IMG/VR virus record: IMGVR_UViG_3300012979_000030
Span: 1 to 64,000 of that record
Source of the DNA: a virus
Lineage: Duplodnaviria; Caudoviricetes
Strand: one strand, 5' to 3'
Length of the DNA: 64,000 nt
In this document: piece after piece, positions 3,764 through 38,764 of the stretch
How the letters are laid out: each line of letters starts with the position of its first letter
Position numbering within the stretch: the first letter of the stretch is position 1
The notes under the pieces: generated by a model
Seen by the model: the letters and a program-made list of their open reading frames with translations, nothing else
What the model was told of the DNA's origin: nothing
The model's database searches: none
Position numbers and translations under genes: made by a program

Positions 3764-4777
3764 TTATTTACTATCCTTTATCTCTTCCAACAAATTATGT
3801 AGAACTTTTAATCCATCAATACATGTTTCTGGAAATTTTATATATTGTTGTGCTCTCATTCTTATGAATATATTTGGAACATAATCATTTCCAATACCCT
3901 CTAATCTTATACAATAGTTATCTAATAAGGAGTGCATTTCTTCTGTAAATTCCATACCATTTGTCTTTATTGCAAATATATGTGGTGCAGTATTTTGAAA
4001 TAATGAAAATCCATATTTAATCAAATCATAATGAAAATATTGTGTCATTACTTGTGTAAAACTATTCAATAAATCCTTTCTTTTTAACATTATATCTAAC
4101 AATTCTAAATAATCATAACCCCAATTTATTGCTTTAATTCCAAAATCATTATTTCTACTAATTAAAATACCCATATCATAACCCTCAATTAATGCATGAG
4201 CAGTTCCAACCACATAATCAAATATTGTATAATCTCTTGGAACCATAAACATTCCTTGAACATCATCCAAAACCATAATGTGTTCAATATTATTAATTAC
4301 CAATTGTTTCTTCAATGTTTCATAAAATAATTGTGGTGTTATCTCACCAGAAGATATTTGTGTTCCAATAATATATATAAATGCTTTCTTATATTTTTTA
4401 CACTCTGTTACAATAGTATCAACATTTAATGTGATAATATCTTTATAATGATTTAATATTAGTTTATTATTACATTTATTAACCAATTCTTTTACATTAT
4501 TATGTTCATTCATTGATGTTATTACTAATGTATCTTCATTAACATATTTTTTGAATAAATTTTTAATATGATTTGTAGCACAAGTATCAAACATGATATT
4601 ATGTGTTTTAGATGATATGTTACTAAATGGCATTCTACTAAAATATTCAGATTCCATTTTTTTATATTCTTTATCAGAATATAAAACAGCCTCTTCACTT
4701 CTTGTATTGGAAAGAATAAACATTTCCATATCATTTAATCTTCCTGCATTTAACCACCATTCTACTATATTATTCAT
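3764..4777 (-). CDS. Class V aminotransferase/cysteine desulfurase-fold protein lacking the PLP lysine
   Basis: ITSMNEHNNV, SSGEI, LDDVQG, DYVVGTAHAL (NifS-type SAHK lysine replaced by Ala). Confidence 0.6.
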   Translation of the reverse strand: MNNIVEWWLNAGRLNDMEMFILSNTRSEEAVLYSDKEYKKMESEYFSRMPFSNISSKTHNIMFDTCATNHIKNLFKKYVNEDTLVITSMNEHNNVKELVNKCNNKLILNHYKDIITLNVDTIVTECKKYKKAFIYIIGTQISSGEITPQLFYETLKKQLVINNIEHIMVLDDVQGMFMVPRDYTIFDYVVGTAHALIEGYDMGILISRNNDFGIKAINWGYDYLELLDIMLKRKDLLNSFTQVMTQYFHYDLIKYGFSLFQNTAPHIFAIKTNGMEFTEEMHSLLDNYCIRLEGIGNDYVPNIFIRMRAQQYIKFPETCIDGLKVLHNLLEEIKDSK

Positions 4778-4787
4778 ATTTTATCCT

Positions 4788-5315
4788 TTATTCAACATTA
4801 TTATACATTAATGGATTTTTATATATATCCTTTTCAAAATCTATTATTAATCTTGATTCATTTTCAGAAGATATAGTAAATTCTAAATTTTTAATTCTAT
4901 TTTCACCATTATCCAATACAACTATATCATCATTATCATAAACAACTCTTTTTGATTCTTTATTATCAAATTTTTGTTTTAAAGTATTATATATAATTGC
5001 AATTCGTGTATTTTCTTTGATAATAATTTCATTATTAGAAATATTTGTAATTGGTAATATAATTTCACATTTATTTGATGAATCATCACAATATCTGCAA
5101 CACTCAATAATAATCATTGGATATTCTTTTATATCGTGTTTAACAAATACATTTTCATTTCCACCACAATCTATGTATATACCTGTGTTATATTCAATTG
5201 ATTCATTTGGTTTAATATATATATCTCTATTATTTAAAATTTGTATTTCATCCAAATTAATTGGACTTACAACCAATTTTACAATATCATCTTTATTAAC
5301 AATATTAGTCACCAC
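4788..5315 (-). CDS. dUTPase-fold protein, catalytic motifs degenerate
   Basis: IKPNE...NTGIYI and EIILPITN...IIKENTRIA match the trimeric dUTPase scaffold; RSG and G.ID.DY.G motifs absent. Confidence 0.5.
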   Translation of the reverse strand: MVTNIVNKDDIVKLVVSPINLDEIQILNNRDIYIKPNESIEYNTGIYIDCGGNENVFVKHDIKEYPMIIIECCRYCDDSSNKCEIILPITNISNNEIIIKENTRIAIIYNTLKQKFDNKESKRVVYDNDDIVVLDNGENRIKNLEFTISSENESRLIIDFEKDIYKNPLMYNNVE

Positions 5316-6282
5316 ACATTTCCTCTATCATCTGTCTATCACATAAAACACAATCATCTGTATCAATATATGCTTGATATGAATTCATATGACCACATGG
5401 TAATATTACTGTATTTAATAAACTTGGATCTTCTAAATATTTTGAATGTTCAATGGAAGTGTCTTTATCTCTTACAAACTCAACCATATGTTCATTTTCA
5501 TCATTAAAGTTTCTATATAAATTATCTGCTCTATAATAAATATTAAATAATTTATCCCACATTTCTGGTGATTCTTGCTGTTTAAATTTAATAAGAAAAT
5601 CTAAAAACTTTTGTCTAGTAGGAAAGAAATTTGGCAAAACATTATTCATATCTTGTTTTGTTTTATGTATATATGGATTACCACATTGTTTAAAGAAAAA
5701 TTTTGTATGATATTCTTCCATCATCTTTTCAAAATTAATCTCATCATTTAAATACTTGTCAATTAAATCCCCTGTTAATATTGTTGTAATATTAAATAAA
5801 ATATCTGGATATAATTTATGAATTTGTTTCATATGATATGACCAATTATCTTCCATCTTTTTTGTATGAAATCTACCAATTGTATCATATGATGTTAATA
5901 TCCAAAGATTACCTTTATGACCCTTAAATTTTTCAAGGGTTTCATATAAATCTTTTTGATCACCAATAGTTAATGTTGCATATATCCACACAGTATCTAT
6001 ATATTCATTATTTAACAACCAAACGGTTTTATCTATAAGGTTCATAAACTCTTCTTTTACTTCTTTTGATTTCATTTGACCTTGAAAAAATTCACCACCC
6101 AAATATGATATAGTAGAATATTCTGGATATAATGATAAATCAGATATTTTATCATATGCCATCTTTATAGAATCTATTTTGATTTTATCTGATGTATAAC
6201 AATTATCATGTGCTAAATAACAGAACTTACATCTACTATTACACTCTTGCCAAAGTTCAAATTGCAATTGTTTTCCTCTCAT
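5305..6282 (-). CDS. Radical SAM protein (subfamily A)
   Basis: ELWQECNSRCKFC, GGEFF, TSYD..GRF, C-terminal CGH...CVLCD. Confidence 0.9.
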   Translation of the reverse strand: MRGKQLQFELWQECNSRCKFCYLAHDNCYTSDKIKIDSIKMAYDKISDLSLYPEYSTISYLGGEFFQGQMKSKEVKEEFMNLIDKTVWLLNNEYIDTVWIYATLTIGDQKDLYETLEKFKGHKGNLWILTSYDTIGRFHTKKMEDNWSYHMKQIHKLYPDILFNITTILTGDLIDKYLNDEINFEKMMEEYHTKFFFKQCGNPYIHKTKQDMNNVLPNFFPTRQKFLDFLIKFKQQESPEMWDKLFNIYYRADNLYRNFNDENEHMVEFVRDKDTSIEHSKYLEDPSLLNTVILPCGHMNSYQAYIDTDDCVLCDRQMIEEMCGD

Positions 6283-7223
6283 AAATACACCTCACCATCT
6301 AATAACATTAAATCACATAACATACAGTTATCACAATCAGAATAACATTTATATAATATTGAATGACCACATTTTTCATTTATTATTTCTTTTCCATCCG
6401 TTAACACTGGTTGCTCATAAGGGTCATTAGACCAATTTTTTCCTTTCAAACCTGTATATTTAAAAGAACAAGAATTCTTAGTTGAATGTAAGAATGATTC
6501 ATATACTTCATATCGTTCTTCTTTTAAATACATAATAAACTCCAAGAAATCATCTCTATTAAAGAAAAAATCATCTAATGGTTTTCCAGTTTTAATTGGA
6601 TGTGGATATAATAAACACAACATATTGCCTGGAATTTCATTATTCATAAATTCATTTACATCAAATTTACCATCTTTCCACATATTAATTAAATACTGTG
6701 TTAAAATCATTTGAACCCCAACACAATAATTATATCTATTATGGAAATCATTAATGTTCTTTAATACCAATTTGGAATCTTCTTCACTTTTATATCTATA
6801 TTTAAAATCATATGAAAAATTTACATCAATTTTACCAACACCCACAGCATCAACAATTTTATCAATAACTTTATATAAAAAAGTTGGTTCATATAATCCA
6901 TTTGTTACAGTAGAATATCTGCAACCAGGATTTGTAGATACTTTGAGAATTTTTTCAATGATTATATCAATTAATTCTAAAAATGATTCTTGTAGTTCTT
7001 TGTCTTTAATATAATATAATTCACCACCCAATAAAGATATACCATAACTAAATTTATTCTTCCAATCCAAAACATCAATATTTTTCTTTATCATATCTAA
7101 ATTTCTTAATTGTAATTTTTTAGTAAGAAATTCTCTTTCTTCTCTCAAACAAAAATCACAATTATTACAACAATTTGGCCATACACCATATTGGCAACAA
7201 TGCTGAAAATTATTTTCTATCAT
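6279..7223 (-). CDS. Radical SAM protein (subfamily A)
   Basis: WPNCCNNCDFC, GGELY, VTNG, SYD..YRY, CGH...CMLCD. Confidence 0.9.
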   Translation of the reverse strand: MIENNFQHCCQYGVWPNCCNNCDFCLREEREFLTKKLQLRNLDMIKKNIDVLDWKNKFSYGISLLGGELYYIKDKELQESFLELIDIIIEKILKVSTNPGCRYSTVTNGLYEPTFLYKVIDKIVDAVGVGKIDVNFSYDFKYRYKSEEDSKLVLKNINDFHNRYNYCVGVQMILTQYLINMWKDGKFDVNEFMNNEIPGNMLCLLYPHPIKTGKPLDDFFFNRDDFLEFIMYLKEERYEVYESFLHSTKNSCSFKYTGLKGKNWSNDPYEQPVLTDGKEIINEKCGHSILYKCYSDCDNCMLCDLMLLDGEVYL

Positions 7224-7224
7224 A

Positions 7225-7905
7225 TCATTTTATCCCATCTAAATATAATATTAAATCATTTAATGTATCTAATACTTCTATATCTCTAGCACATGTTCCA
7301 CCATTTTTATATACACAAAATGTTTTTATATAATTTAATTTATCACTATTTTCCACCAAAAATTTAATCAATGATGTTATTTGGGTTTTATTTATTTTAT
7401 TAGGAACTAAATCAAACATTAAACATTTTGCTTGTTTAGAAATTCTAATTATACCACATGATACTGCAATACTTATTATTTCATCTGTATTTAACTCATC
7501 ATCAATACCCAAATATTTTAATAATTCTTTTGAGTGTTCATCATCACAAATTATAACATCTCCATTTGGCATAACCATATAACCAAATATATCTTCTGAT
7601 ATATTAAATGAATCAAATTCTTTATGATACTTATCGGTTCTAAATATTGATATATCTTCTTTGTTTTTTAATGTTCCATTAAAAAATGATAACATTTTTA
7701 TACTATATTCTGTATCATTTAATAACACATCATCAAATACTCTCTTATTCCATTTATTTTGTAATTCTGTTAAATCATTACTTGAAATAGACACAATTAT
7801 TCCATTTTTTGAACAACCATTGCATTTTATAGTATATAATTTATCATCTGAATTATATACATAATCAACATTTTCATTACAAAATGGACAATTTTTAAAA
7901 AACAT
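7225..7905 (-). CDS. Hypothetical protein with N-terminal Lar-like zinc-ribbon
   Basis: KNCPFC...IKCNGC...KWNKR matches the Lar (restriction alleviation) family pattern; C-terminal region unassigned. Confidence 0.5.
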   Translation of the reverse strand: MFFKNCPFCNENVDYVYNSDDKLYTIKCNGCSKNGIIVSISSNDLTELQNKWNKRVFDDVLLNDTEYSIKMLSFFNGTLKNKEDISIFRTDKYHKEFDSFNISEDIFGYMVMPNGDVIICDDEHSKELLKYLGIDDELNTDEIISIAVSCGIIRISKQAKCLMFDLVPNKINKTQITSLIKFLVENSDKLNYIKTFCVYKNGGTCARDIEVLDTLNDLILYLDGIK

Positions 7906-8915
7906 TATTCTCCCTTGGTCAAAAGATATTCATAAATTAATTTTGGTGTAGGACAACCAGTTGAATCCCATTTCATCATACAACAATCACCCCTACAATA
8001 TTTTAAATATGGACAATCTCTACAACCATCATTTAATTTCTTCTCAAATAAAACATTTTCATTGTATATGTCCATATTTTTATTATTTGGGTTTAATATA
8101 TTGAAAAATGGTTTAACTGATGTTACAAAACATTGTGATACATCACCATTTGGTAAAAATGTTAAATTGTTTTCTTGGCAACACCTACTATGCTCATAAT
8201 AATTATTACCACATATTGATTCTTCCATACAATTAAATGTTTCAACATATACACCAACATCCTTTAATTTTTCATACAAAAGATAAGCATCAAACATCCA
8301 TTTATCAACATCTCTGTTTGTTGCTACAATATTACCATTATCATAATCTATCATTGGTTTTAATGGTGGGAATAACCTTTCTAATTCTATTTTTTTAATA
8401 CCCAATCCTAACATTATATCAAATAATGCTCTGGGTGTTAAATTTTCTACCACATCTTTTGTAATAGTAATGACACAAGACAATTCTATACCATTAGATG
8501 TTATTTTTCTAACATTATTAAACCATAATTCTCTTTGTTGTTCATTTGAGAATCTAATAGAATAATCATATGATGTATCCAAATAATCCATTTTTTTGAA
8601 TAAATTTAACCATTCATCTGTTAAATTATATACTAAATTTGATTGTGCATATATTTCAACATTATTATTAATAACATTATCTCTCATGTAATCTATCATA
8701 ATAGATAGTATATTTGGGTCATATAAACCAATCTCTCCACCAAAAAATTCAATTAAATATCTATTACTTGGATTGTTATTTGCCTCATTAATTAGATATG
8801 TAATTGTTTTTTCCAATATATCCATTGACATTGATGTGGTATTTCTGATTGCAAAACAATGTTTGCATTTTAAATTACATTTATTAGTTAAGACAATAGT
8901 TATATGTTTATCCAT
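7905..8915 (-). CDS. Radical SAM/SPASM protein (subfamily C)
   Basis: CNLKCKHC, FFGGE, TSYD..IRF, C-terminal CRDC.YLKYCRGDCC...GCP; ATG at 8915 preferred to GTG at 8927. Confidence 0.9.
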   Translation of the reverse strand: MDKHITIVLTNKCNLKCKHCFAIRNTTSMSMDILEKTITYLINEANNNPSNRYLIEFFGGEIGLYDPNILSIMIDYMRDNVINNNVEIYAQSNLVYNLTDEWLNLFKKMDYLDTSYDYSIRFSNEQQRELWFNNVRKITSNGIELSCVITITKDVVENLTPRALFDIMLGLGIKKIELERLFPPLKPMIDYDNGNIVATNRDVDKWMFDAYLLYEKLKDVGVYVETFNCMEESICGNNYYEHSRCCQENNLTFLPNGDVSQCFVTSVKPFFNILNPNNKNMDIYNENVLFEKKLNDGCRDCPYLKYCRGDCCMMKWDSTGCPTPKLIYEYLLTKGE

Positions 8916-8916
8916 T

Positions 8917-9834
8917 TTATTCACCACACATTTGTTTTACTTGTTTAACTATTTCTAACATCTTATCATTAGAATCCAATAAACCAGTTTCATATTTTAC
9001 ATCCATATCAGTAAAAGATATTGTCATATTAGTTTTTCTTCTATTAGACATTATATATCGTTTACCATTATAATTACAATATATCTTATCAGACCTAACA
9101 TTAGGTGATATAAATGTATCTAAATCTATTTCTCTATTTTCTATTGCAACTTTGTATAAAAATTCTATAAACCTATCTTTTGTAGGAAAGAAATCTGGCA
9201 TATCTTTTGAACATTCTTTCTTATCATAATAATAAAATCCAGAACCGGGTTCAATATAATCAATGTGTGTATTATATTCTTTACAAAAATCTGTTATACT
9301 AAACTCACCATTCAATACTGACTCAATAAAGAATCCAGAAACAATTGTTTCTGTATGCAATCTTAATTTTGGAAATACATAATTTAATAATTTCATATTA
9401 GATTCCCACATATGTTTTCTATCACTAGTATGAAATCTATATTTCAAATCATATGATGTACAAAGTAAAACATTTTCCAATACACCTTTATCATTTAAAT
9501 AATTTAAAAATGGTATCAAATGTTTATTCATATCAAACAATAAAGCAGTTGTTATATACAATTTATTAATTTTATTATTTTTAATTTTGTCAATACATTT
9601 ATCAAATAATCTATAAAACAATTGTCTTACATTCTTATTATCCAATTGACTATCAAAAAACTCACCACCAATAAATCCTATTTCATTATACTCATTAACT
9701 TCTGTATCATCTAACTTATCAATTACAAAATTTAATGATTCAATTTTATCTAAATCTTTTTGTCCTTTATTAAAGCAGAATTTACAACCATTTGAACAAT
9801 CTTTCCATAATTCATATTGTATAAAGTTATTCAT
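8917..9834 (-). CDS. Radical SAM protein (subfamily A, lacks C-terminal Cys cluster)
   Basis: ELWKDCSNGCKFC, GGEFF, TSYD..YRF; ATG at 9834 after GGAG. Confidence 0.88.
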   Translation of the reverse strand: MNNFIQYELWKDCSNGCKFCFNKGQKDLDKIESLNFVIDKLDDTEVNEYNEIGFIGGEFFDSQLDNKNVRQLFYRLFDKCIDKIKNNKINKLYITTALLFDMNKHLIPFLNYLNDKGVLENVLLCTSYDLKYRFHTSDRKHMWESNMKLLNYVFPKLRLHTETIVSGFFIESVLNGEFSITDFCKEYNTHIDYIEPGSGFYYYDKKECSKDMPDFFPTKDRFIEFLYKVAIENREIDLDTFISPNVRSDKIYCNYNGKRYIMSNRRKTNMTISFTDMDVKYETGLLDSNDKMLEIVKQVKQMCGE

Positions 9835-9835
9835 C

Positions 9836-10717
9836 TTATTCTCCAAACAATTTAGATAATTCTATTAAATCACATATAAAACATCTGTTATCACTAGAAT
9901 ATAATTTAAAATTTTGTGAATGACCACATTCCATATTATCACATGATACAAATGTTAAAGATTGTTTTTTATTATCATACTTGTATAATAATTTATCCTG
10001 TTTTAAACTAAAATTATCAACATATCTATTAAAATAATTTGGTATTAATTCATTAACTTTAATTAAGGTTGAAAATATTTGTTCTCTTGTTGCTGATAAT
10101 TCTTCTGTATAAACAATATATGGTATAAGATTTATATCACAATTATATTCATCACAAAAATCTTTTGGATTAAATACATTGTTTAAAATTTTTTCACATG
10201 TTTGTTTTGTTAATATTGTGTTGACTACTATATTACATTTTGGATATGTATTTTTTACATATTTAAGATTTGTCAAAAATAAGGTTTCTTTTTCTTTTGT
10301 TGAGAATCTACCTTCTAAGTCATATGATGTTGTAAATTTTAACCTATCCCATAAGTTATCATAATCAATAAGAGATAATAATTTATTTAAAATTCCCATA
10401 TTGTTATACAATAAATTTGTATTGATGTATAATAAATCAATACTGTTGCTGTTCATTTTATCAACAATTTTCTCAAAAAAATTTACGTAATCATTAATAA
10501 TCAAAAGGTTAGATTCATCAAAAATTTCACCACCAACTAATAAAACATGACTGCCATTTACATAATCATTAGAATCTAAAAATTCTAACACACAATTTAA
10601 AGATTTTATTTTATTCAATGGAGACAGAATAATTCCATTCTTTCTTTGAAAACAAAATTTACAATTATTATTACAATTATCCCAAAGTAAAAATTCATAA
10701 ACAGGTTTACATACCAT
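9836..10717 (-). CDS. Radical SAM protein (subfamily A)
   Basis: LWDNCNNNCKFC, GGEIF, TSYDLEGRF, CGH...CFICD; ATG at 10717 after AAGGAG. Confidence 0.9.
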   Translation of the reverse strand: MVCKPVYEFLLWDNCNNNCKFCFQRKNGIILSPLNKIKSLNCVLEFLDSNDYVNGSHVLLVGGEIFDESNLLIINDYVNFFEKIVDKMNSNSIDLLYINTNLLYNNMGILNKLLSLIDYDNLWDRLKFTTSYDLEGRFSTKEKETLFLTNLKYVKNTYPKCNIVVNTILTKQTCEKILNNVFNPKDFCDEYNCDINLIPYIVYTEELSATREQIFSTLIKVNELIPNYFNRYVDNFSLKQDKLLYKYDNKKQSLTFVSCDNMECGHSQNFKLYSSDNRCFICDLIELSKLFGE

Positions 10718-10736
10718 ATATTTCTCCTTTTGAGAT

Positions 10737-10765
10737 ATTATATAATAATTTAATATTAATGACAA
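10737..10765 (-). promoter_or_regulatory. sigma70-like promoter
   Basis: TTGTCA-17 nt-TATAAT on the minus strand, ~20 nt upstream of the 10717 start. Confidence 0.6.
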
Positions 10766-10779
10766 TATTTAATCTTTAT

Positions 10780-11346
10780 CTATTCTGTATATGGATCTTT
10801 TAAAGAAGCAGTATATTCAACAGGGATGACTCTAATTTTATTATGTAACTTATCCATAATAATAGTAAAGATATCATTGACATCTTTAGCATCAATTCTG
10901 TCTGTTTTTTCATCACCAATTGTATGGTATAATGAAGTGGGTAGTGATAATACTCCACCTGTATATATTAGATATTTCTTTGATGAATATTGACTTATAG
11001 AAAATTTTAAATTTTCTATACAAAACCCAACCATATTATTAATCAAATGATATAATTCTCCATCTAATATTTGTTGATTCAATTTATTATAAACACCAAT
11101 ATTCTTTAAAAAGTTCTCAAAATCACTATTAACATTACTTGTTTCTTTTCTTTCAACCTTATTATTGGTTAAATAAAATCTTATTAGTGCATTTTTAGAA
11201 CCCGGAATTTTAAAATTTCCTGTATCATATGATTTAAAACATGCATCCATACTATCATATTTACTACCAACATTTTGACAATTATTATTGATAAAAGCAA
11301 GGATTTTATCTGTAATATTTTTATATGTTATATTTCCACTTATCAT
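10780..11346 (-). CDS. Hypothetical protein, paralog of 11346-11954 without the Ser/Cys tail
   Basis: ITYKNITDKI..FINNNCQN vs ITYKDLADKI..LIINKCDN; other shared blocks (KYLIY/KYVIY). Confidence 0.6.
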   Translation of the reverse strand: MISGNITYKNITDKILAFINNNCQNVGSKYDSMDACFKSYDTGNFKIPGSKNALIRFYLTNNKVERKETSNVNSDFENFLKNIGVYNKLNQQILDGELYHLINNMVGFCIENLKFSISQYSSKKYLIYTGGVLSLPTSLYHTIGDEKTDRIDAKDVNDIFTIIMDKLHNKIRVIPVEYTASLKDPYTE

Positions 11347-11954
11347 TATATTTCCATATATGCTATAAACATTGAACTACTTGATGAACAAGAACTACTT
11401 GATGAACTTGAACTACTTGATGAACATGTATAAGTAATAGTTGTTGCGGGATAAAATACTTTTGATGTTGAGTTAATTGCATTTAATAATGAATTAACAT
11501 CTGTTTCTATTTGTGCTTTTGTATAATTCTTATCTTTTAATGCAGTTTGAACACTTGTATAATTAGTTGCACTTGCATTATAAATTACATATTTTTCACC
11601 CCTAAAACTTGATCCAACCAAAACCATCTTTGCAGATAAAAAGGATGAGATATTTGCATAAAAATTCATCATACCTTTAAATGTAATAACTTCATTTTCT
11701 TTTGATTTTATACCCCTTGAAGATAAAAATGAATCAAGTTGTGTTTTAACAACTGATGCACTTATAGGAACAAGCTTATTATCATTAATAGTTAATGTAC
11801 ATTTTGTTTTACTTGTTGAAGATATTGTATATGTTTGACCATTTATAGGAATAGTTTTATCAATATTATCACATTTATTGATTATTAATTCATATATTTT
11901 ATCTGCCAAATCTTTATATGTTATCTTCTTCCCTACTTCTATTGTCATCTTCAT
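11346..11954 (-). CDS. Hypothetical protein with C-terminal Cys/poly-Ser tail (candidate rSAM substrate)
   Basis: Ends TYTC-S11-C-S5-MFIAYMEI; lies inside the rSAM cluster. Confidence 0.6.
   Translation of the reverse strand: MKMTIEVGKKITYKDLADKIYELIINKCDNIDKTIPINGQTYTISSTSKTKCTLTINDNKLVPISASVVKTQLDSFLSSRGIKSKENEVITFKGMMNFYANISSFLSAKMVLVGSSFRGEKYVIYNASATNYTSVQTALKDKNYTKAQIETDVNSLLNAINSTSKVFYPATTITYTCSSSSSSSSSSSCSSSSSMFIAYMEI
11373..11426 (-). repeat. 3 x 18-bp tandem repeat encoding (C/S)SSSSS
   Basis: Minus-strand units TGTTCATCAAGTAGTTCA / AGTTCATCAAGTAGTTCT / TGTTCATCAAGTAGTTCA. Confidence 0.9.
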
Positions 11955-12606
11955 TCCTTAAAAAATCACTCAATAAACTAATACCAATTGAACTCTTCAT
12001 TAATAATTGAGATATAATGGTACAAGAATTTTCAATATAAACACATTCATCAGTATTAAATGGTTTACTCAATGAAAATATACCAGATAATGTTAATAAA
12101 TCACTTGATAAAAACAAATTTCTATAAATGTTAGGTAATTGAATGTGTTTATCTAATGGAGTAAATGTTAATTTGTTATATGATTTAAACAATGCAATAA
12201 AATGAATACTCATTTTTTGAATAAATGCTTCTAGTTCATTTTTAATTTTTAATTTCAAATTTAACAAATCAGTAATAGATGAAATATAAATGTTTTCATC
12301 TTTAAAGAAATATTCATTAAGTTTTAATCCACTTTTAATCAAATTCATAATATTTAATAACATTAATGGATCTTTTAAATCTTCTCTATCTAAGGAGTAT
12401 TTAATTGCAACCGATAATTTATCAATATTAATTCCCTTTAATAAAACTCTTATATTTGGAATAATATCTAAAGAATTTTCATAATCATATATATATGATA
12501 ATGATTTGACCAAATCTTCTTCTGAAATAGAATCAGAAAAATTGATATCAATATCTTCACCATTTAATAATTCTTTTAATTGCTGTTCGTCATATTTTTC
12601 AATCAT
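11914..12606 (-). CDS. Hypothetical protein (rSAM-cluster accessory)
   Basis: 230-aa ORF with GAGG RBS, overlapping the start of the Ser-tail gene. Confidence 0.6.
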   Translation of the reverse strand: MIEKYDEQQLKELLNGEDIDINFSDSISEEDLVKSLSYIYDYENSLDIIPNIRVLLKGINIDKLSVAIKYSLDREDLKDPLMLLNIMNLIKSGLKLNEYFFKDENIYISSITDLLNLKLKIKNELEAFIQKMSIHFIALFKSYNKLTFTPLDKHIQLPNIYRNLFLSSDLLTLSGIFSLSKPFNTDECVYIENSCTIISQLLMKSSIGISLLSDFLRNEDDNRSREEDNI

Positions 12607-12639
12607 TAATTTACCTCTTATAAGTATATTTATTACTGG

Positions 12640-13578
12640 TTATTTTATGTTATTACAAATATTTTTTATACACATTAATGTGTTTTTTAAATTATAACAA
12701 TCATATGTATCATCCTTTAAATCATGAACTCTTTTCATACATCCATTACAAATATTAAAAAACTCACACATATAACATTCATTCTTTATTATTTTATACT
12801 GATATGAATCATATATATAATCATCATCAAGGGATGGACATGTTGACATATTACCATCTGGACCCATACATTTTATATTTTTATAACATGTTCTGTTTGA
12901 TAATGGACATGTTGTATCTCTATTATTAAAGAAATTTATTAAATTTAAACAATTTGATTCATATTTATATAAGTCATCAGTTTCAAATAATTGTAAGTAT
13001 ATATCATACATTTTATCCAATGGATAGTGATACCCTTGTCTCCCAGATTTAACGGCAGGATTTAATTTACATTCTGTTCCAAGTTTTTTTGCCAATTTAA
13101 CATTATCAATTGCATATCCAGCATTTTCATTTGTAACAACACTAACAAATGTCAATTTTTCATTATATAATTCCTCAAATTTATAAAATATTTTTAAAAA
13201 ATCATCTTCTGTAAATAATGTATAATTTGGTTTTATCCGTCCATTTCCATATTGAAAAGATGTGCATATACCAATCTCGGGTTGTCTAAACAAATCATCC
13301 CATTTATCTGTGTTAATATACCAATCCCATAAGTTTGTTGTAAAAGATATAATACAATTTAGTTTTTCACTTCTTATGTGTTCAATAATGTCATAATAGA
13401 ATTGTGGTTTCATCATTAATGGATCACCACCATTAACAATTATACTTTTTGTTTCTGGAAATTCTTTTAAAAAACTAATAACCTTATCCGACTCCAATAC
13501 TTTATTTGGAATCAAATTAGAAGAACAAAATGAACAATGGAAATTACATGCTCTTGTTGGTTTAATTACTAATTCCAT
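12640..13578 (-). CDS. Radical SAM/SPASM protein
   Basis: KPTRACNFHCSFC, NGGDPL, TTNL, C-terminal CYMC...ICNGC. Confidence 0.9.
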   Translation of the reverse strand: MELVIKPTRACNFHCSFCSSNLIPNKVLESDKVISFLKEFPETKSIIVNGGDPLMMKPQFYYDIIEHIRSEKLNCIISFTTNLWDWYINTDKWDDLFRQPEIGICTSFQYGNGRIKPNYTLFTEDDFLKIFYKFEELYNEKLTFVSVVTNENAGYAIDNVKLAKKLGTECKLNPAVKSGRQGYHYPLDKMYDIYLQLFETDDLYKYESNCLNLINFFNNRDTTCPLSNRTCYKNIKCMGPDGNMSTCPSLDDDYIYDSYQYKIIKNECYMCEFFNICNGCMKRVHDLKDDTYDCYNLKNTLMCIKNICNNIK

Positions 13579-14548
13579 TTTTTAACTCCAAATATTTATA
13601 TATTGATAACATTCCTGGACAACCTGTGTTATCCCATTGTAATTGACAACAATCACCATTACATTGTTTAAAATATTTACAACACAAACAACCAATATTT
13701 TTATTATCTTCAAAATTATATAGCATTTTTTTCTTGTTTTCATCAATGGTTTTTAATGTTCCATATGAAATATTTGCCATATTTGGACAACTAGAGATTG
13801 TTCCATTAGGATTTATGGTTGTAACAGTTCTCATACATTGTCTTCTCCTACAACCAATCAAATTCCCCTTAATCCCTTCTTTAACTCCACTAAATAATGG
13901 TATATAAAATTTTGTATTCTCATATATTTTAAATGCATCTAATAACCATTTATCTAAATCAGAATTGTTTGGTCTCACATCATTTACATCTGCTCTACCA
14001 GTTGATGTAATTCTTTCAAAATTAAAATATTTGAGTCCAAGATTTGAAAACATATCAAAAATATAATTTGGGTTTAAATCTTTTATAAGTTGTTTTGTCA
14101 AACAAACAATTGGTTGAACTTCTATACCAATAGATTTGAGTTTTCTAACATTATTCAACCACAATTCTTCTTGTTCTTCATTAAACCTTATTTTATAATC
14201 CCAAGATGTTTTTATAAATGATTTATGCATCTTTTTAAAAATTTGAATATGTTTATCTGTCAATTCATAAACAAGATTTGTTGTTATTTCCCACATTATA
14301 TTTGTTTCATTTACTGATTCAATAATATATAAAATTTTATCTAAATCATATAGGGTAGGTTCTCCACCATGTAATGTGACATTTATATCATCATTTGGGT
14401 GTTTGTTGCAAAATTCTTTTAACCAGATTAATACATCTTCCAAAACATCTTCTTTCATATGATTATGATTCATCATTATTTCATTATAACAATGCTCACA
14501 TTTAAGTTGACACCCATTAGTTAATTTAAGATATATATTATATTCCAT
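13562..14548 (-). CDS. Radical SAM/SPASM protein (subfamily C)
   Basis: CQLKCEHC, HGGEP, TSWD..IRF, CLCCKYFKQCNGDCC...GCP. Confidence 0.92.
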   Translation of the reverse strand: MEYNIYLKLTNGCQLKCEHCYNEIMMNHNHMKEDVLEDVLIWLKEFCNKHPNDDINVTLHGGEPTLYDLDKILYIIESVNETNIMWEITTNLVYELTDKHIQIFKKMHKSFIKTSWDYKIRFNEEQEELWLNNVRKLKSIGIEVQPIVCLTKQLIKDLNPNYIFDMFSNLGLKYFNFERITSTGRADVNDVRPNNSDLDKWLLDAFKIYENTKFYIPLFSGVKEGIKGNLIGCRRRQCMRTVTTINPNGTISSCPNMANISYGTLKTIDENKKKMLYNFEDNKNIGCLCCKYFKQCNGDCCQLQWDNTGCPGMLSIYKYLELKNGISN

Positions 14549-15437
14549 TTTTTATACCCGTGCAAATGTTACATGTTTTTAATTTACCTGCAAGTGATTC
14601 ATTTCTCAAATTCATTGCTTTTTCAGAAAACCATAGTTCATCCAATGGAGTTTCCATAATATTACCAATAACAAACTCATCATCCACTCCCCACCTACAC
14701 AAATTTACATCACCATTTGTCTTTATATGACATAAATTATACATACCATAGCATGGTATATTTCCACACAATCCATTAATAATTCTTGGATTATTTGTTA
14801 AATCTATGTATTTGTTTATAACTTTATCAGCATGAGAATATATCTCAGTAAAATAATAATTATCAACAATTTTTGACATTTTATCAACAAAATCATCTTG
14901 TTCTGTATTATTGTAGAAGATTGATGATGCAGATATTTCTGTTGATGATATTATATCATTTCTATATTTAATAAGCAATTTTATATTTTCTATTATTTTA
15001 TCAAATGTATCAACACCTGTTGCTTTTAAGTGTGTTTCTTTATTATACCCATTTAATGAAAATTTAATTGATTGTATGTTATTTTTTACCAAATATTTTA
15101 ATTCATCTATTCTTGTTCCATTAGTTGTTATAAACAACTTTGAATTACAACCATTAAGTATTATATCAATTATTTCACAAAATTGTGGATGTAAAGTTCC
15201 CTCACCCATATGAAATAAACCAATTTCTTTTATATTTAATCTTCTAATTTCTTCAATTGTTTTATTAACCACATCAATAGGCATAAACTTCTTCAAACCT
15301 TTTAATGTTGGAACAACACAATAATAACATTTATGATTGCAAACACCAGATAATTCCAATTTTACTGCTGTTGGTAAATTACTACAAGATAAATCAATAC
15401 TTGTTGATGCTATTTTAATTCTATCAATGATGCTCAT
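14538..15437 (-). CDS. Radical SAM protein with twitch/SPASM domain
   Basis: CNHKCYYC, MGEGTLHP, TTNG, PC...GDVNLC...IGNI...W...CNIC. Confidence 0.9.
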   Translation of the reverse strand: MSIIDRIKIASTSIDLSCSNLPTAVKLELSGVCNHKCYYCVVPTLKGLKKFMPIDVVNKTIEEIRRLNIKEIGLFHMGEGTLHPQFCEIIDIILNGCNSKLFITTNGTRIDELKYLVKNNIQSIKFSLNGYNKETHLKATGVDTFDKIIENIKLLIKYRNDIISSTEISASSIFYNNTEQDDFVDKMSKIVDNYYFTEIYSHADKVINKYIDLTNNPRIINGLCGNIPCYGMYNLCHIKTNGDVNLCRWGVDDEFVIGNIMETPLDELWFSEKAMNLRNESLAGKLKTCNICTGIKNGI

Positions 15438-15441
15438 GCTT

Positions 15442-16479
15442 TTATAAAATTGTTATGTGTGGGTTTACTAATTTATTAATTAAATCTTTATTCACTGGTG
15501 GATTGTAATATAAATCATATGTTCCCAAATATGTTGTATTCATCATAATACAAACGGGTATTGTAGGAACATTTGTATATAATGCCGATAATATTCTTTT
15601 ATTAGAATAGTATGGTCTCAAAACACCATCTGGTGTTAATTTCAACTGTATAACTCTCTTTAATCCATTCTCAACACAATCTTTAACCAACAGACTTGCT
15701 TTTGTAAAATTTGCATTTGCATGACAATAATATGCTTTGTCAGTCAAATCATATGTTAAAACCTCGGTTTCATAAACCATTTGTTTTAAATATTCTCGTG
15801 GCATATTTTTATATAAATATGTAGTTGTAAAATTTGGATTATCTTTATATGTAAATTCACCAAACTTTTCTTCTGTTAATTTACTCCATTTTACTGTTTT
15901 TGGTAAATATTGGAATTCAACCTTTGGTTTTATATATTGTTCAGATGGATATTTAAATATTTGATGTTTTACTGTTGCCATATCCATATTATATAATGTT
16001 ACTTTTGCTTTTACAGTTTCACCATCATCTATATGCTTTTTAATTGGTGCAGGAATAACAAGGGTATCTGTTTGTGCATAATATCTTATACCATCATATC
16101 TTTCGTGTATTAATAAATTATAGGTTTCTTCATCCATTGGATCTTCTGTAAAGATTTTGATATTTTGAAAATCTTTAAGTATTTCATTATTAAAATCATA
16201 ATAATCATTTGTTGATATTGAAGTAATATATGATAAATCATTTGTTTCCAATGGTATATCTTCTGTAATTATTTTTGGTGAATATTCTGATAAACCAAGT
16301 TTTTCAACAATATACCTATCATATGCAGGCAATGAAGGGTTTTCACCAAGTTCATCTTCAATGTCCCCTCGTTCTCTTTCAACAATTGGTTGATATATAT
16401 CATCACCAACATCATATTCAATGTCATCATTATATCTGATATCTTCTTTTAAAATATCCAAACTCAAAGCATTATGCAT
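15442..16479 (-). CDS. Hypothetical protein, possible degenerate ParB/Srx-like C-terminal domain
   Basis: LVKDCVENGLKRVI...NKRILSALYTNVPTIPVCI resembles the ParB-N pattern. Confidence 0.4.
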   Translation of the reverse strand: MHNALSLDILKEDIRYNDDIEYDVGDDIYQPIVERERGDIEDELGENPSLPAYDRYIVEKLGLSEYSPKIITEDIPLETNDLSYITSISTNDYYDFNNEILKDFQNIKIFTEDPMDEETYNLLIHERYDGIRYYAQTDTLVIPAPIKKHIDDGETVKAKVTLYNMDMATVKHQIFKYPSEQYIKPKVEFQYLPKTVKWSKLTEEKFGEFTYKDNPNFTTTYLYKNMPREYLKQMVYETEVLTYDLTDKAYYCHANANFTKASLLVKDCVENGLKRVIQLKLTPDGVLRPYYSNKRILSALYTNVPTIPVCIMMNTTYLGTYDLYYNPPVNKDLINKLVNPHITIL

Positions 16480-16480
16480 A

Positions 16481-17209
16481 TTAATTTACCCCATCAACAT
16501 ATTCTGCTAAACCTTTACTAAATTCTTTCCATCCATCACCACTACTCATCCCATATAATAATGCTGTAAATGGTGTATATTTAGATACACATTCAAATAA
16601 TTTATTGTTTGATTCTGTAAATATATCATCATAAAAATGTGGTTTAATAGATATATCATTATTATCAAATAATAACATAAAACACTCATTTTTAATCAAG
16701 TTACAAATATTACTATTAAATGGTTTACCACAAATATGTGTTACATCACCAAAAGTAAATTTATCTTCTTCAACCATATCTAACCTTGATAATGGATATA
16801 ATGGTAATGAAAAACAAAATGTTAAAACATCTATAATTAATTTTTCATTATCTTCTATAAATTTCTTCATTTCATCATCTGTCAATATACAATCATTTGT
16901 ATTATATGATGTATTATAATACATTCCCAAGATTTTTAACCAAGTATCATCTAATTCAACAATTTGATATTCAATATCACCAATTAAATATTGCTTTAAC
17001 ATATCACACTTAAAATCATAATCTGATTTTGTAAAATCAAGTTTTATATTTTTTAAATCTGTATTTCTTAAATAAATTATAGATATATTTGCATATTGAG
17101 ACATTAATATGCCATCAAACTTAATATCAGACATATCAACAATTAAATGTTCATCCATTGGTTTGTTTAATATTTCATCACTATATGGTAATCCACTATT
17201 TAACATCAT
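16481..17209 (-). CDS. Hypothetical protein translationally coupled to the Cys/His-tail protein
   Basis: TAATG stop/start overlap at 17209 with AGGAGA SD supplied by the last codons of the upstream gene. Confidence 0.65.
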   Translation of the reverse strand: MMLNSGLPYSDEILNKPMDEHLIVDMSDIKFDGILMSQYANISIIYLRNTDLKNIKLDFTKSDYDFKCDMLKQYLIGDIEYQIVELDDTWLKILGMYYNTSYNTNDCILTDDEMKKFIEDNEKLIIDVLTFCFSLPLYPLSRLDMVEEDKFTFGDVTHICGKPFNSNICNLIKNECFMLLFDNNDISIKPHFYDDIFTESNNKLFECVSKYTPFTALLYGMSSGDGWKEFSKGLAEYVDGVN

Positions 17210-17928
17210 TATCTCCTTGATCTTGTTCCATAACAATTACCATGACAATTTAAATGGCATGTATATAAATTGTATGTCAATGTGTTTGCAGATATACAAG
17301 TATTATACCATGTATTATAACAATTTGTAATTGTTGTGTTCATATTTCCAGCTGTTATTTGGGCATTTGTTGTTAGGGCACTACTTGGATTCAATGTTAT
17401 TGAGGTTGTACCACTCCTTTCCCAAGAAGTTGATGAACCACCTAATGCATTTGATGCTGTTGGAACTGCCGGGAAAGATGCATTTATAACACATGTCCCT
17501 GAAACTGAACCTTTATTAATTAATGAACCACCATTTGGATCAGATGAGTTTGCATCATCGTTTACTGTTGTAAATTGTCTATGATACCATGTTGATGTAA
17601 ATTTTCTAATCTTATTTAATGCTCGTGTCATTGTTAACATCTGAGACCAAAGTGATGATGCAGATATAGTAGTATCAGATAATGTTAAAGATGGAACACT
17701 TTTGGACAACATTTGATTTGATGGTAATGCTGCTGGATTAGTAAAACCAACACTCCCAACATTATTTGAACCAATATTTGCTGTTCCAGAAAATTTTGGA
17801 ACATTACCACTATGGTATGTTGCTTGATTATATGCTTTTGTTAATACATTTGTATTAAAATCAGTTATTGCACCAACTATATTATTTGCTGTAACTTTTT
17901 GTATTTTTTGATTTTGTGTTACACCCAT
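17209..17928 (-). CDS. Thr/Asn/Ser-rich virion-like protein with C-terminal CHxxCHxxC..RSRR tail (candidate rSAM substrate)
   Basis: Ends YTCHLNCHGNCYGTRSRR*; body composition unlike the surrounding enzymes. Confidence 0.65.
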   Translation of the reverse strand: MGVTQNQKIQKVTANNIVGAITDFNTNVLTKAYNQATYHSGNVPKFSGTANIGSNNVGSVGFTNPAALPSNQMLSKSVPSLTLSDTTISASSLWSQMLTMTRALNKIRKFTSTWYHRQFTTVNDDANSSDPNGGSLINKGSVSGTCVINASFPAVPTASNALGGSSTSWERSGTTSITLNPSSALTTNAQITAGNMNTTITNCYNTWYNTCISANTLTYNLYTCHLNCHGNCYGTRSRR

Positions 17929-17955
17929 CTTTAATCCTTATAATAAATTATACAA

Positions 17956-18840
17956 TTATTTATTTTTAATAATATCATATAAACCAGAGCAATAAGGTTT
18001 TGAAAATGTTTTTAAATGCTCTGCTTTACACTTATCAAAAAATTCACATAAACAACAATTTTTTAAATAATCTTTTCTTTCTTTAACAATATACTTTTCC
18101 CACTCATTGATTGATTCAAACTCAACTAAATGTTCTATTGAATCTTTATATTCAACTGTCCCATAATTTCCATTTGGCAATATAAATACAAACCCACTTT
18201 GTGTTGGATTGTATTCATCATCATTTAAATATTTCATATTTTCTATATCAAAACAATAGTCACCCTTATTATATTCATTTATAATATTCTTTAAAAATAT
18301 AATAAAATCTTTTGTTGATATATCATACTTATTACAATATATTGACGGGTTATACTCCAAAAAATAAACGTTTTTACCAAGCAAATTATAAAATTCTAAC
18401 ACACTATTAATATCTTTTTCTAATAATGATGGAAGAACAACAGATGTTATTGAACAATCAATGTTTTTTATTTTTTTTAAAACATATTCATAATTGCTTC
18501 TTTCCTCATTTAATGATACATTTATATGAATATTATTATTTTTACAATAATCTATAATCCAATCATTTGTCAAATTTGTTGTTACATTTATTTCCCATTT
18601 TCTAATTAAATATATTAGATTATCAAGATATTTTTTATCTAATAAACTTATTTCACCACCATATATTGAAATATGTGAAAAATCATAACCATTGTGTAAT
18701 AATTCAGCAATTTTTTCATCAAGTGTTTTTAATGATAATATGGTTTTATCATTTTTCATATTACCCAAATAACAATAATCACAATTCATATTACAATGAT
18801 ATAATGGTATAATAGATAAATTAAGATTTTTTGTATTCAT
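17956..18840 (-). CDS. Radical SAM protein with SPASM-like C-terminus
   Basis: PLYHCNMNCDYC, YGGEI, TTNL, CCLCEFFDKCKAEH...CSG. Confidence 0.9.
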   Translation of the reverse strand: MNTKNLNLSIIPLYHCNMNCDYCYLGNMKNDKTILSLKTLDEKIAELLHNGYDFSHISIYGGEISLLDKKYLDNLIYLIRKWEINVTTNLTNDWIIDYCKNNNIHINVSLNEERSNYEYVLKKIKNIDCSITSVVLPSLLEKDINSVLEFYNLLGKNVYFLEYNPSIYCNKYDISTKDFIIFLKNIINEYNKGDYCFDIENMKYLNDDEYNPTQSGFVFILPNGNYGTVEYKDSIEHLVEFESINEWEKYIVKERKDYLKNCCLCEFFDKCKAEHLKTFSKPYCSGLYDIIKNK

Positions 18841-30804: not shown

Positions 30805-31938
30805 CTATTCCACATATGTTATTGTTAATTTATTATTATTTACAACATTTTGAACAAATGCTGTTGATGCAACACTTTGTGATGAATCCGATAAATCACT
30901 AACAGTAGGAACATTTGGACTTGAAGTAAATGTTTTTGTTCCATCAATTGTTTCATTACCACTTTTATGAACTATATTTGTTTCATCAATAGTAATATTA
31001 TCAATCAATCCATCAACTTCATCTTTTGTATATGTTGTTAGTTGGTCTGCTTTTGTTGCTATATTTGATGTATTTGATGCAATTTGTTCAAGTGTTGATG
31101 ATGTAACACCACTGTTAACGGCGGCAAGTTGTTCAGATGTTAAGGTTGCCTGCTTATTTCCCAATTCTGTGTTTATATCTGTAATATCTTTATTTAATTC
31201 AGTAATATCACCATTTATATTTGTTATACTATTATTAATTCCAGAAATATCACCATTTATACCCAAAATGCTTGCATTGATATTTGTTATACTATTTGTA
31301 TTTGATGTTATTTGTGATTGTAGTTGTGTTTCAGCCTCTGTTCTTGCTGATGTTTCTTCACTTAATTTTGTTAATACCCAACCTGCTGTTGCTATTTCAT
31401 TATCTTTTGCATCTGCTTTTGTGGTTGGTGCATATGCAATTATATCACCATTATCATAAAATCTTATTTCTAATGGAATTGGTGTAAAAACCCCATTATT
31501 ACTTGCTATTTCTAATTTAGCAGAATTATACAATTTTGTATCATCTATACCTCTTACAAATCCCAAAACACCAACAGAAATATCATTTTTATCTGTAATG
31601 TCAATTTTTCCAAAATATGGATTATCTGATACTGTGTCATTAATTCCAGTGGATGTACTATTTAATGCAACAACACCAACACCATTATCTGTTCCTCTAA
31701 ATGTTTTTAATCCAGTAATTGATTCATTACCTGCTTTATGTACAACCATATTTTCAATTGGTAATGTATTAACAACTTCTCTCAATTTTTTTGGTGTTAT
31801 ATATGTATAATCATCAATTCCTTGACTAACCATTTCTGATGTTGCTATTTTTGATACACCATCTGTTGTTTCAGTTGCTTTTAAATTGTTTTGTAAATCA
31901 ACCCAATTGTTTCCACTATTATACTTAATTTTTGGCAT
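30805..31938 (-). CDS. Tail fibre protein with coiled-coil segment
   Basis: Two VHK.GNE.I.G.KTF repeats; heptad ITNINASILGINGDISGINNSITNINGDI. Confidence 0.7.
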   Translation of the reverse strand: MPKIKYNSGNNWVDLQNNLKATETTDGVSKIATSEMVSQGIDDYTYITPKKLREVVNTLPIENMVVHKAGNESITGLKTFRGTDNGVGVVALNSTSTGINDTVSDNPYFGKIDITDKNDISVGVLGFVRGIDDTKLYNSAKLEIASNNGVFTPIPLEIRFYDNGDIIAYAPTTKADAKDNEIATAGWVLTKLSEETSARTEAETQLQSQITSNTNSITNINASILGINGDISGINNSITNINGDITELNKDITDINTELGNKQATLTSEQLAAVNSGVTSSTLEQIASNTSNIATKADQLTTYTKDEVDGLIDNITIDETNIVHKSGNETIDGTKTFTSSPNVPTVSDLSDSSQSVASTAFVQNVVNNNKLTITYVE

Positions 31939-35832: not shown

Positions 35833-35840
35833 GAGAAATT

Positions 35841-37049: not shown

Positions 37050-37060
37050 AGGGACAAAAA

Positions 37061-38755: not shown

Positions 38756-38764
38756 GAGAACTTT

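Follow-up and report, generated by a model that had tools for sequence, protein, structure and literature searches.

The 64,000-nucleotide stretch of DNA analysed here (positions 1 to 64,000 of the IMG/VR virus record IMGVR_UViG_3300012979_000030; hereafter "the window") encodes, at positions 11346 to 11954 of its minus strand, a protein that ends in a run of serine and cysteine residues followed by a short hydrophobic tip. In the reading that we favour, and to which we give a somewhat better than even chance, this is a tail-fibre-associated protein of a giant phage, and a dedicated set of radical S-adenosylmethionine (rSAM) enzymes, inherited together with it, acts on its Ser/Cys tract. The window is part of a 106.5-kb virus record that is 41% complete according to CheckV; its GC content is approximately 25%, and DNA that is nearly identical to it has been recovered from the guts of sheep and cattle in the metagenomes of nine studies. 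The tailed gene and its parts are the following:

11346..11954, minus strand: gene of the Ser/Cys-tailed protein, an open reading frame (ORF) of 202 amino acids (aa), probably 200 aa with the likely true start at the ATG at 11948; 41 close homologs (word-indexed search) and 163 representative homologs at E<=1e-3 (exhaustive search).
11427..11948, minus strand: predicted folded alpha/beta N-terminal domain, residues 3-176 (about 10-178 in the model), with a variable loop after the first helix (AlphaFold2 (AF2) model m0d633c81e070).
11373..11426, minus strand: Ser/Cys tract, three 18-bp units coding for C-S5, S6 and C-S5 (Tandem Repeats Finder and translation).
11349..11372, minus strand: hydrophobic C-terminal tip, M-FIAYMEI (conserved tip profile over 135 homologs).

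The start at 11948 is the probable one because the sequence AAGGA is located 8 nt upstream of it, and because the homologs and the ESM Atlas record begin with MTI. The C-terminus of the product reads ...T-Y-T, C-S11-C-S5, M-F-I-A-Y-M-E-I, stop; the initial annotation, which had described this tail as the product of three 18-bp units with mixed TCA and AGT codons, is borne out by the translation and by the unit sequences, i.e. TGT TCA TCA AGT AGT TCA for unit 1 (minus strand, 11426-11409), AGT TCA TCA AGT AGT TCT for unit 2 (11408-11391) and TGT TCA TCA AGT AGT TCA for unit 3 (11390-11373). Unit 3 repeats unit 1 exactly and unit 2 opens with AGT instead of TGT, as had been noted, but the last base of unit 2 also differs (TCT versus TCA), which had escaped attention. 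The array is reported by Tandem Repeats Finder at 11374-11426, with a period of 18, 2.9 copies, 91% matches and a score of 92; the self-match of the tract is 0.89 at period 18, against 0.23-0.56 at the other codon-multiple periods, and when the Ser codons are shuffled 200,000 times around fixed Cys codons, the observed periodicity is reached in only 171 cases. The 18-bp repeat therefore exceeds what would arise as a by-product of the use of two kinds of Ser codon.

The conservation of the tail has been examined across the family, to whose members the window protein is related with phmmer E values of 1e-114 to 1e-9; no homolog retrieved carries a name or a Pfam domain. The window protein shares the motifs of the folded domain of the family, namely I-T-Y-x-D-L ... 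C-x-N, F-L-x-S-R-G-I and N-F-Y-N-N-I-A-S-F. A Ser/Cys run followed by a hydrophobic tip is found in 135 of the 178 retrieved proteins, and these 135 tails are the basis of the tail statistics given below; the remainder are mostly fragments or tail-less forms, and every full-length homolog has both the run and the tip, so that the tail is a conserved feature and not an accident of one gene. The tip has the consensus [FY]-I-[AGV]-Y-M-x-[ILV], with which the window protein agrees, and its profile over the 135 homologs is F 119, I 128, A 93 (V 24, G 17), Y 123, M 113, any residue, and I, L or V 127; the protein ends exactly at the tip in 100 of the 135.

The composition of the tract is restricted to two residues: 2280 Ser and 445 Cys, with 14 Thr and 6 Asn. 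Cys is about 30 times more common than Thr, although the codons of both are single-step neighbours of Ser codons, and hence selection admits only Ser and Cys, i.e. the side-chains -CH2-OH and -CH2-SH. Other properties of the tract are variable: its length is between 6 and 31 residues (median 20), the number of Cys residues per tail is between 0 and 7 (most tails have 2-4), and the Cys-Cys spacings range from 1 to 22, with a spacing of 6 in only 10 of 313 cases; the "Cys-every-sixth" pattern, by which the tail had initially been characterised, is thus not a trait of the family. Certain places are nonetheless preferred by Cys, which occupies the first residue of the tract in 65 of 132 tails and occurs in the pattern C-S5-x-tip in 46 of 132. 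Cys-free tails occur in 3 of the 135 representatives; the Cys-free tails that we have identified by name are P0014, P0062, P0082, P0163, that of locus L010 (S29) and one copy in locus L014, and the genomes of Cys-free tails, where seen, encode a further tail that does contain Cys. Exactly one tailed protein, with a single Cys, is encoded by either of the complete genomes, G002 (203 kb) and G003 (171 kb).

These properties bear on two other explanations of the tail. The main rival to an enzymatic target, to which we assign a real but minor probability, is that the Ser/Cys run is a flexible, protease-tolerant spacer and the tip a docking peptide, i.e. a β-strand that plugs into a partner (the 230-aa protein described below, a fibre or baseplate protein, or an rSAM enzyme), with the rSAM enzymes acting elsewhere, on another protein, on the folded domain or on a small molecule such as a nucleotide or a sugar. 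Conservation within the family is highest at the tip, the wholly hydrophobic pattern of which would suit a buried strand, the length of the tract is free, and polyserine linkers are known in secreted bacterial enzymes; however, a plain linker would be expected to accept Thr, Gly, Asn, Pro and Ala, whereas only Cys joins Ser here, and the preference of Cys for set places would not be expected either. The second explanation, which we consider very improbable, is that the Cys residues bind a metal or an Fe-S cluster, or link subunits by disulfides, without enzymatic modification; the 2-4 Cys residues of most tails and the approximately 15 Fe-S enzymes encoded by the phage are in agreement with it, but the tails with one Cys or none, as well as the lack of a fixed Cys spacing, are not.

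That the tail is under selection is indicated by the closest relatives of the window protein, encoded at loci L020, L021 and L022. The four proteins are 49-62% identical overall, yet all of them keep C-S11-C-S5-[M/L]-FIAYMEI, i.e. all 26 residues apart from one M/L change, while the Ser codons differ at many positions, including switches between TCN and AGY. Because synonymous changes have accumulated where the residues have stayed the same, the comparison of these sequences identifies strong purifying selection on the residue pattern and the length of the tail; the retention of the exact C-S11-C-S5 arrangement at this level of divergence is also a point against a plain linker. The initial annotation had proposed (CSSSSS)3 as the ancestral form of the tract, but position 7 is AGT (Ser) in all four members of this group, so that a recent form of this kind has no support. 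Units 1 and 3 co-vary within genomes, being identical in the window and in L022 and one base apart in L020, which in these sequences indicates concerted evolution.

The description of the repeat as expandable has held in part. Over long times, whole units do change: the clade of loci L003-L007 has a 27-bp unit that codes for C-S8, and the proteins P0010 and P0016 are shorter by one 9-residue unit than P0007 and P0015. No gain or loss is seen on the shorter scale, i.e. there is no insertion or deletion across the repeat in contigs from four ruminant metagenome runs of four studies, where the flanks carry 15-71 substitutions; the sole change inside the repeat of these contigs is 11391 A>T (TCT to TCA on the minus strand), which is synonymous. 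As a separate observation, this variant, present in one gut metagenome, leaves unit 2 differing from units 1 and 3 at its first base only. The four tailed paralogs arranged in tandem at locus L002 (9302-12075) share only 40-52% identity in the folded domain, whereas 36-39 of the 39 nt that precede the stop codon are the same, a pattern which points to gene conversion confined to the tail end.

It could also be supposed that the tail is a meaningless low-complexity repeat, which slippage during replication has left at the end of a gene that is otherwise ordinary, as might be thought of an 18-bp tandem repeat in a genome of 25% GC. We give this practically no credence: the tract and the tip are kept across 163 representatives, including a phage of 50% GC, the tail carries synonymous changes without replacements, and the four metagenome studies show no length polymorphism. 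Slippage is, in other words, already refuted by the conservation data.

Our search for the partners of the tailed gene has been conducted in two directions, around the following genes of the window:

11914..12606, minus strand: 230-aa partner, directly upstream of the tailed gene and overlapping it; a homolog is located beside the tailed gene in 18 of 20 loci.
10780..11346, minus strand: 188-aa paralog of the tailed protein, with the domain but no tail (blastp E 4e-6; profile E 1e-15).
9836..10717, minus strand: subfamily A rSAM, 9836-type, the only rSAM gene of the minimal cassette L002.
8917..9846, minus strand: subfamily A rSAM, 8917-type (homology to other subfamily A genes).
6279..7223, minus strand: subfamily A rSAM, 6279-type (homology to other subfamily A genes).
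5305..6282, minus strand: subfamily A rSAM, 5305-type (homology to other subfamily A genes).
7905..8927, minus strand: SPASM-type rSAM; its best family match is the anaerobic sulfatase maturase, far under the cut-off.

From the side of the tail, 20 loci were fetched through the tailed protein and their ORFs were classed by blastp against the window proteins: at least one subfamily A rSAM gene is present in all 20 loci, next to the 230-like partner in the 18 loci mentioned above, and the usual cassette contains one gene from each of the four subfamily A orthogroups. The smallest cassette, at locus L002 on a 327-kb contig, consists of one 9836-type rSAM gene, a 230-like gene and four tailed genes, and adjoins a gp25-like baseplate gene; such a minimal set leaves few other candidate substrates for the rSAM enzyme, which is a further difficulty for a linker with the enzymes acting elsewhere. 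From the side of the enzyme, 25 IMG/VR loci were found with an alignment of the 9836-type rSAM: a tailed ORF is located at most 10 kb away in 22 of the 25, counting L036 (with the tips FIGFL and FIIYL), in two more it occurs elsewhere on the same contig (L035 with L013, and L046 with L048), and the remaining locus, L047, is cut by the end of its contig. The second of these pairs belongs to a contig of about 50% GC, where L048 (G004:C1:79000-97000) holds the partner, a tailed protein that ends in ...C-S-Y-I-A-W-Y-N-L-V-A and four subfamily A rSAM genes, with the 9836-type gene (L046) situated 20 kb from the rest.

The tie of the tailed gene to the subfamily A genes is therefore seen in both directions, in 20 of 20 loci and in 24 of 24 informative contigs. 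The absence of the tail where subfamily A is retained, which the initial annotation had named as evidence against its proposal, was looked for from the enzyme side and was not encountered, as all of the 24 informative contigs hold a tailed protein. As for its placement of the gene just upstream of the subfamily A genes, the linkage with the cassette stands, but the tail-less paralog at 10780-11346 is located between the tailed gene and the rSAM gene at 9836-10717; such a paralog follows the tailed gene in 13 of the 20 loci.

The genes are also closely packed. The stop codon of the tailed gene (11346-11348) overlaps the ATG of the gene that follows (10780-11346). On its other side, the tailed gene shares 35-41 nt (11914-11954) with the gene of the 230-aa partner, which is read in a different frame, and overlaps of 1-68 nt recur at the corresponding junction of the homologous loci L003-L007; the overlap suggests translational coupling of the partner and the tailed protein. 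A scan of 10500-13000 has found promoter-like sites at the level of shuffled sequence (33 versus 29.5) and no terminator. No RNA data set is listed among those that contain the tailed gene; the gene is present in one run labelled as metagenomic RNA-Seq, which may contain DNA and is not taken as evidence of expression.

The position of the cassette in the genome, in turn, connects the tailed protein with the fibre. From 33247 down to 2073, the genes of the window are located almost entirely on the minus strand, fibre and baseplate genes first, then approximately 15 ORFs with rSAM signatures, and the cassette is a continuation of the tail-fibre operon, which includes:

30805-31938: gene of a BppL_N protein, of the fibre/baseplate group.
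26413-30801: 1462-aa fibre-like protein with a Gly_rich_2 domain (Pfam).
25070..25975, minus strand: fibre-like protein (weak PHROGs tail-fibre matches).

Homologs of the last of these are located directly upstream of the cassette, beside the 230-like gene, in eight other loci (L003-L007, L009, L011 and L013). Several family members are, moreover, fused to domains of the same kind: in P0101 (395 aa), a Gly_rich_2 domain (E 3.6e-8), i.e. of the Pfam family that also occurs in the 1462-aa fibre-like protein, is inserted in the variable loop, where the insertions and fusions of both P0101 and P0139 fall; a protein of 640-645 aa at L040:4398-6320 combines a leucine-rich repeat (LRR) region, homologous to the LRR genes of the window at 35820-39589 (E 1e-7), with the family domain and the tail; and the 518-aa tailed form at L036:3914-5470 has an N-terminal region without assignment and a FIGFL-type tip that is followed by ten more residues.

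Because of the fusions to fibre-type and LRR domains, and because of the fibre-like neighbour in the eight loci, we favour a role of the tailed protein as a virion or fibre component over that of a precursor of a released peptide. Under the latter alternative, which we deem improbable, the folded domain would be an oversized leader, and the tail, or part of it, would be modified and cut off as a peptide of the RiPP type (ribosomally synthesised and post-translationally modified peptide) or as a peptide-derived cofactor. The arrangement of many rSAM genes beside a low-complexity, Cys/Ser-rich C-terminus does have the form of a RiPP cluster, the protein encoded at 7905-8927 weakly matches RiPP maturase families, and long leaders are known for the proteusins; against this, the cassette contains no conserved protease or exporter, fibre-type and LRR binding domains are found joined to family members, and the cassette lies inside tail-fibre/baseplate operons.

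Predicted structures have been used to compare both sides of the proposed pair. The AF2 model of the tailed protein has a mean predicted local distance difference test score (pLDDT) of 79.6 and a predicted template modelling score of 0.71, with the tail at pLDDT 36-47; the Ser/Cys tract is, according to the model, disordered, as would suit a peptide-like substrate. The fold of the tailed protein has no match at E<=0.001 in Foldseek searches of pdb and BFVD, its best score in the exhaustive VIA search is Z 4.5, to designed helical proteins, which provides no usable relative, and a search of the ESM Atlas has returned no usable match. The 9836-type enzyme is modelled at pLDDT 88 as the standard rSAM barrel with a small C-terminal hairpin domain; the motifs CxxxCxxC and GGE and, at the C-terminus, C-G-H...CxxC do not vary within this type, and subfamily A has one more invariant Cys. 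The VIA ranking for this model is led by anSMEcpe, an anaerobic sulfatase-maturating enzyme (anSME), at Z 15.5 (262 aligned residues, 3.6 A, covering the whole model including the C-terminal domain), followed by CteB and SuiB (Z 14.5), SkfB and viperin-like structures (13.7) and EpeE (10.7-11.2), while Foldseek places viperin and CteB at the top, with template modelling scores of 0.50-0.56 (viperin 0.55). Judging from the models, subfamily A is an undescribed branch of rSAM enzymes, the nearest folds of which are those of protein- and peptide-modifying enzymes and of viperin; the scores in the ranking differ too little for a decision on the chemistry.

The known system that is closest to the proposed one is the anaerobic sulfatase maturase, an rSAM enzyme that acts on a protein, converting Ser or Cys to formylglycine, and that takes both residues alike by abstraction of a hydrogen atom from C-beta. 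The likeness consists in the structural match of the 9836-type model (anSMEcpe/AtsB, PDB IDs 4k36-4k39; the top match, with CteB, SuiB and viperin-like enzymes close behind), in the neighbouring enzyme encoded at 7905-8927, which has a SPASM domain (TIGR04085, 29.4 bits, cut-off 27) and the anSME family as its best NCBIfam match (TIGR03942, E 2e-14), and in the phage tail, which tolerates only Ser and Cys. The differences are that the phage tail contains neither the motif (C/S)-x-(P/A)-x-R nor any Pro or Arg, that it offers many adjacent candidate targets instead of one, and that subfamily A has at most C-G-H...CxxC and one further Cys, not the seven-Cys SPASM arrangement with two auxiliary clusters; furthermore, the TIGR03942 match of the 7905-8927 protein amounts to 53 bits against a cut-off of 349 and subfamily A has no match to this family, four dedicated orthogroups are found in the place of one enzyme, and the setting is a phage fibre operon.

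A second group of known systems comprises the rSAM-modified RiPPs (SCIFF/ScfB, the CXXX-repeat family TIGR04115, the Cys-every-fifth family CefB NF038107, the sactipeptide enzyme CteB and the ranthipeptide enzyme PapB), where rSAM maturases are likewise found beside a Cys-containing, low-complexity C-terminus, and the enzymes of which, the sactipeptide maturase CteB and SuiB, are near-top matches of the 9836-type model. Their substrates are short peptides with a fixed spacing of obligatory Cys residues, whereas the phage protein has a 175-residue folded domain, free spacing, and Cys numbers down to 0 or 1; matches to the RiPP maturase families are limited to the 7905-8927 protein and are low (NF038107 27.6 bits versus 600, TIGR04115 36 versus 350, TIGR03974 28 versus 425; 27-42 bits overall against cut-offs of 340-600), and Pfam identifies no RRE/PqqD domain in the cassette proteins. 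The epimerases of the YydF/YydG epipeptide (EpeX/EpeE; PDB IDs 8ai1-8ai6) and PoyD resemble the proposed system in that they are rSAM enzymes that modify several residues of a ribosomal product, which in the proteusins has a long leader domain; EpeE is among the structural matches, but well below anSME, CteB, SuiB and viperin, and we know of no requirement of the epimerases for targets made of Ser and Cys only. Finally, viperin (PDB IDs 6q2p, 9dgw and 7n7i) has in common with subfamily A a cluster motif of the type C-N-x-x-C-x-F-C-F and weak matches to the NCBIfam family viperin_w_prok, but these reach only 17-23 bits against a cut-off of 180 (17-18 bits for subfamily A against the viperin family NF038283, with the same cut-off), and the match is mostly to the segment that binds the cluster in rSAM enzymes generally. 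The substrates of viperins are nucleoside triphosphates, and no dedicated protein partner is known to travel with them.

On the basis of these comparisons, the tailed protein would function as follows. The disordered Ser/Cys tract would be the target of the four subfamily A orthogroups, joined in the window by the anSME-like SPASM enzyme; the tip would most likely be the handle by which the enzymes, the 230-aa partner or both hold the tail, and the flexible Ser/Cys run would then enter the active site of the rSAM enzyme. By analogy with the anaerobic sulfatase maturase, the chemistry would most likely be the abstraction of a hydrogen atom at a Ser or Cys carbon; an attack on C-beta, as in anSME, is suggested because the rule that only Ser and Cys are admitted matches such enzymes. 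Epimerisation and thioether formation are the alternatives, the case for the latter being perhaps weakened by the existence of Cys-free tails. As a more specific and tentative version, which we regard as possible without expecting it, the tract may be rebuilt stepwise by the four rSAM orthogroups (and by accessory enzymes in the larger cassettes) into an appendage of a new chemical kind, such as a series of formylglycine aldehydes or of their amine or cross-linked derivatives, for covalent bonding or adhesion to the phage's own fibre apparatus or to the host surface.

Several observations weigh against the tract as an enzymatic target. Linked genes have a function in common, but linkage does not show that the product of one is the substrate of the other, and it is the tip, not the Ser/Cys tract, that is best conserved, to which a linker with a docking peptide is equally well fitted. 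The relation between tail length and subfamily A copy number that the initial annotation had proposed to look for does not appear: length (18-30) does not track the number of enzyme genes (1-7) over the 20 loci, a small sample of related loci, and the number of Cys residues shows no visible correlation with rSAM copy number in the same small sample. The only PDB sequence-profile matches of subfamily A are viperin-like (E 3e-4 to 1e-3, about 22 bits), and within the shallow fold ranking, the nucleotide-acting viperin-like enzymes stand at Z 13.7 and at the top of the Foldseek list, which, together with an aminotransferase-like gene in the cassette (2073-2963), would suit rSAM enzymes that act on something other than the tail. 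In addition, the SPASM motif with its seven Cys residues is not found in subfamily A, nor the sulfatase motif (C/S)xPxR in the tail.

The other genes of the cassette are listed below:

7225..7905, minus strand: 226-aa protein with a Lar-like zinc-ribbon N-terminus, found in the same place among the rSAM genes in L020, L021 and L022.
3764..4777, minus strand: 337-aa conserved cassette protein, with a homolog in 12 of 20 loci.
2073-2963: the aminotransferase-like gene.

For the 337-aa protein, a lysine-less pyridoxal phosphate fold has not been confirmed, as there is no Pfam or PDB sequence-profile match, and hhalign aligns it with the aminotransferase-like protein with a probability of 0.3. Pfam, NCBIfam and PHROGs contain no match for the tailed protein, the tail-less paralog or the 230-aa partner; for the partner, a features search of the ESM Atlas has returned ARM/TPR-like clusters at 0.90-0.93, which is a lead to a helical-repeat structure only.

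The surroundings of the cassette are also rich in rSAM genes. Approximately 15 ORFs with rSAM signatures are found within 21 kb (2947-24000, minus strand), directly downstream of the tail-fibre genes; this array, which is unusually dense for any genome, includes a tandem quadruplet (18821-23210), the members of which are 35-59% identical. A second module (17209-17928 together with 12640-24000) comprises six rSAM genes, then a gene for a 239-aa protein whose C-terminus is rich in Cys and His, genes for two proteins of 251 and 345 aa, and a further three rSAM genes. The whole block is found again in L008 and L010, divergently oriented beside the Ser/Cys-tail cassette, but most other loci lack it, and it is therefore a separate unit.

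Searches of the literature on rSAM enzymes with polyserine or serine-rich phage proteins, on rSAM enzymes in jumbo and rumen phages, and on the FIAYM tip have found no description of the system, and a tblastn search of phage GenBank records has returned no match; to our knowledge, the modification of ribosomal products by rSAM enzymes has been described for bacterial peptides and a few enzymes, not for structural proteins of phages. What we have found is a widely conserved phage module, in which a folded, fibre-associated protein is accompanied by its own set of four rSAM enzyme types, and which spans genomes from 25% to 50% GC, in ruminant guts and in other habitats. If the tail is modified, the module would give viruses a new means of changing the chemistry of their own particles, and if the tract is rebuilt stepwise, virus particles would be subject to a new class of post-translational modification by enzymes. 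A modified tail would also offer a new rSAM chemistry on a repetitive, easily synthesised Ser/Cys substrate, for which a 26-residue peptide with a defined handle would be the test bed. The module gives a function-linked context to several large, unannotated gene families of giant phages.

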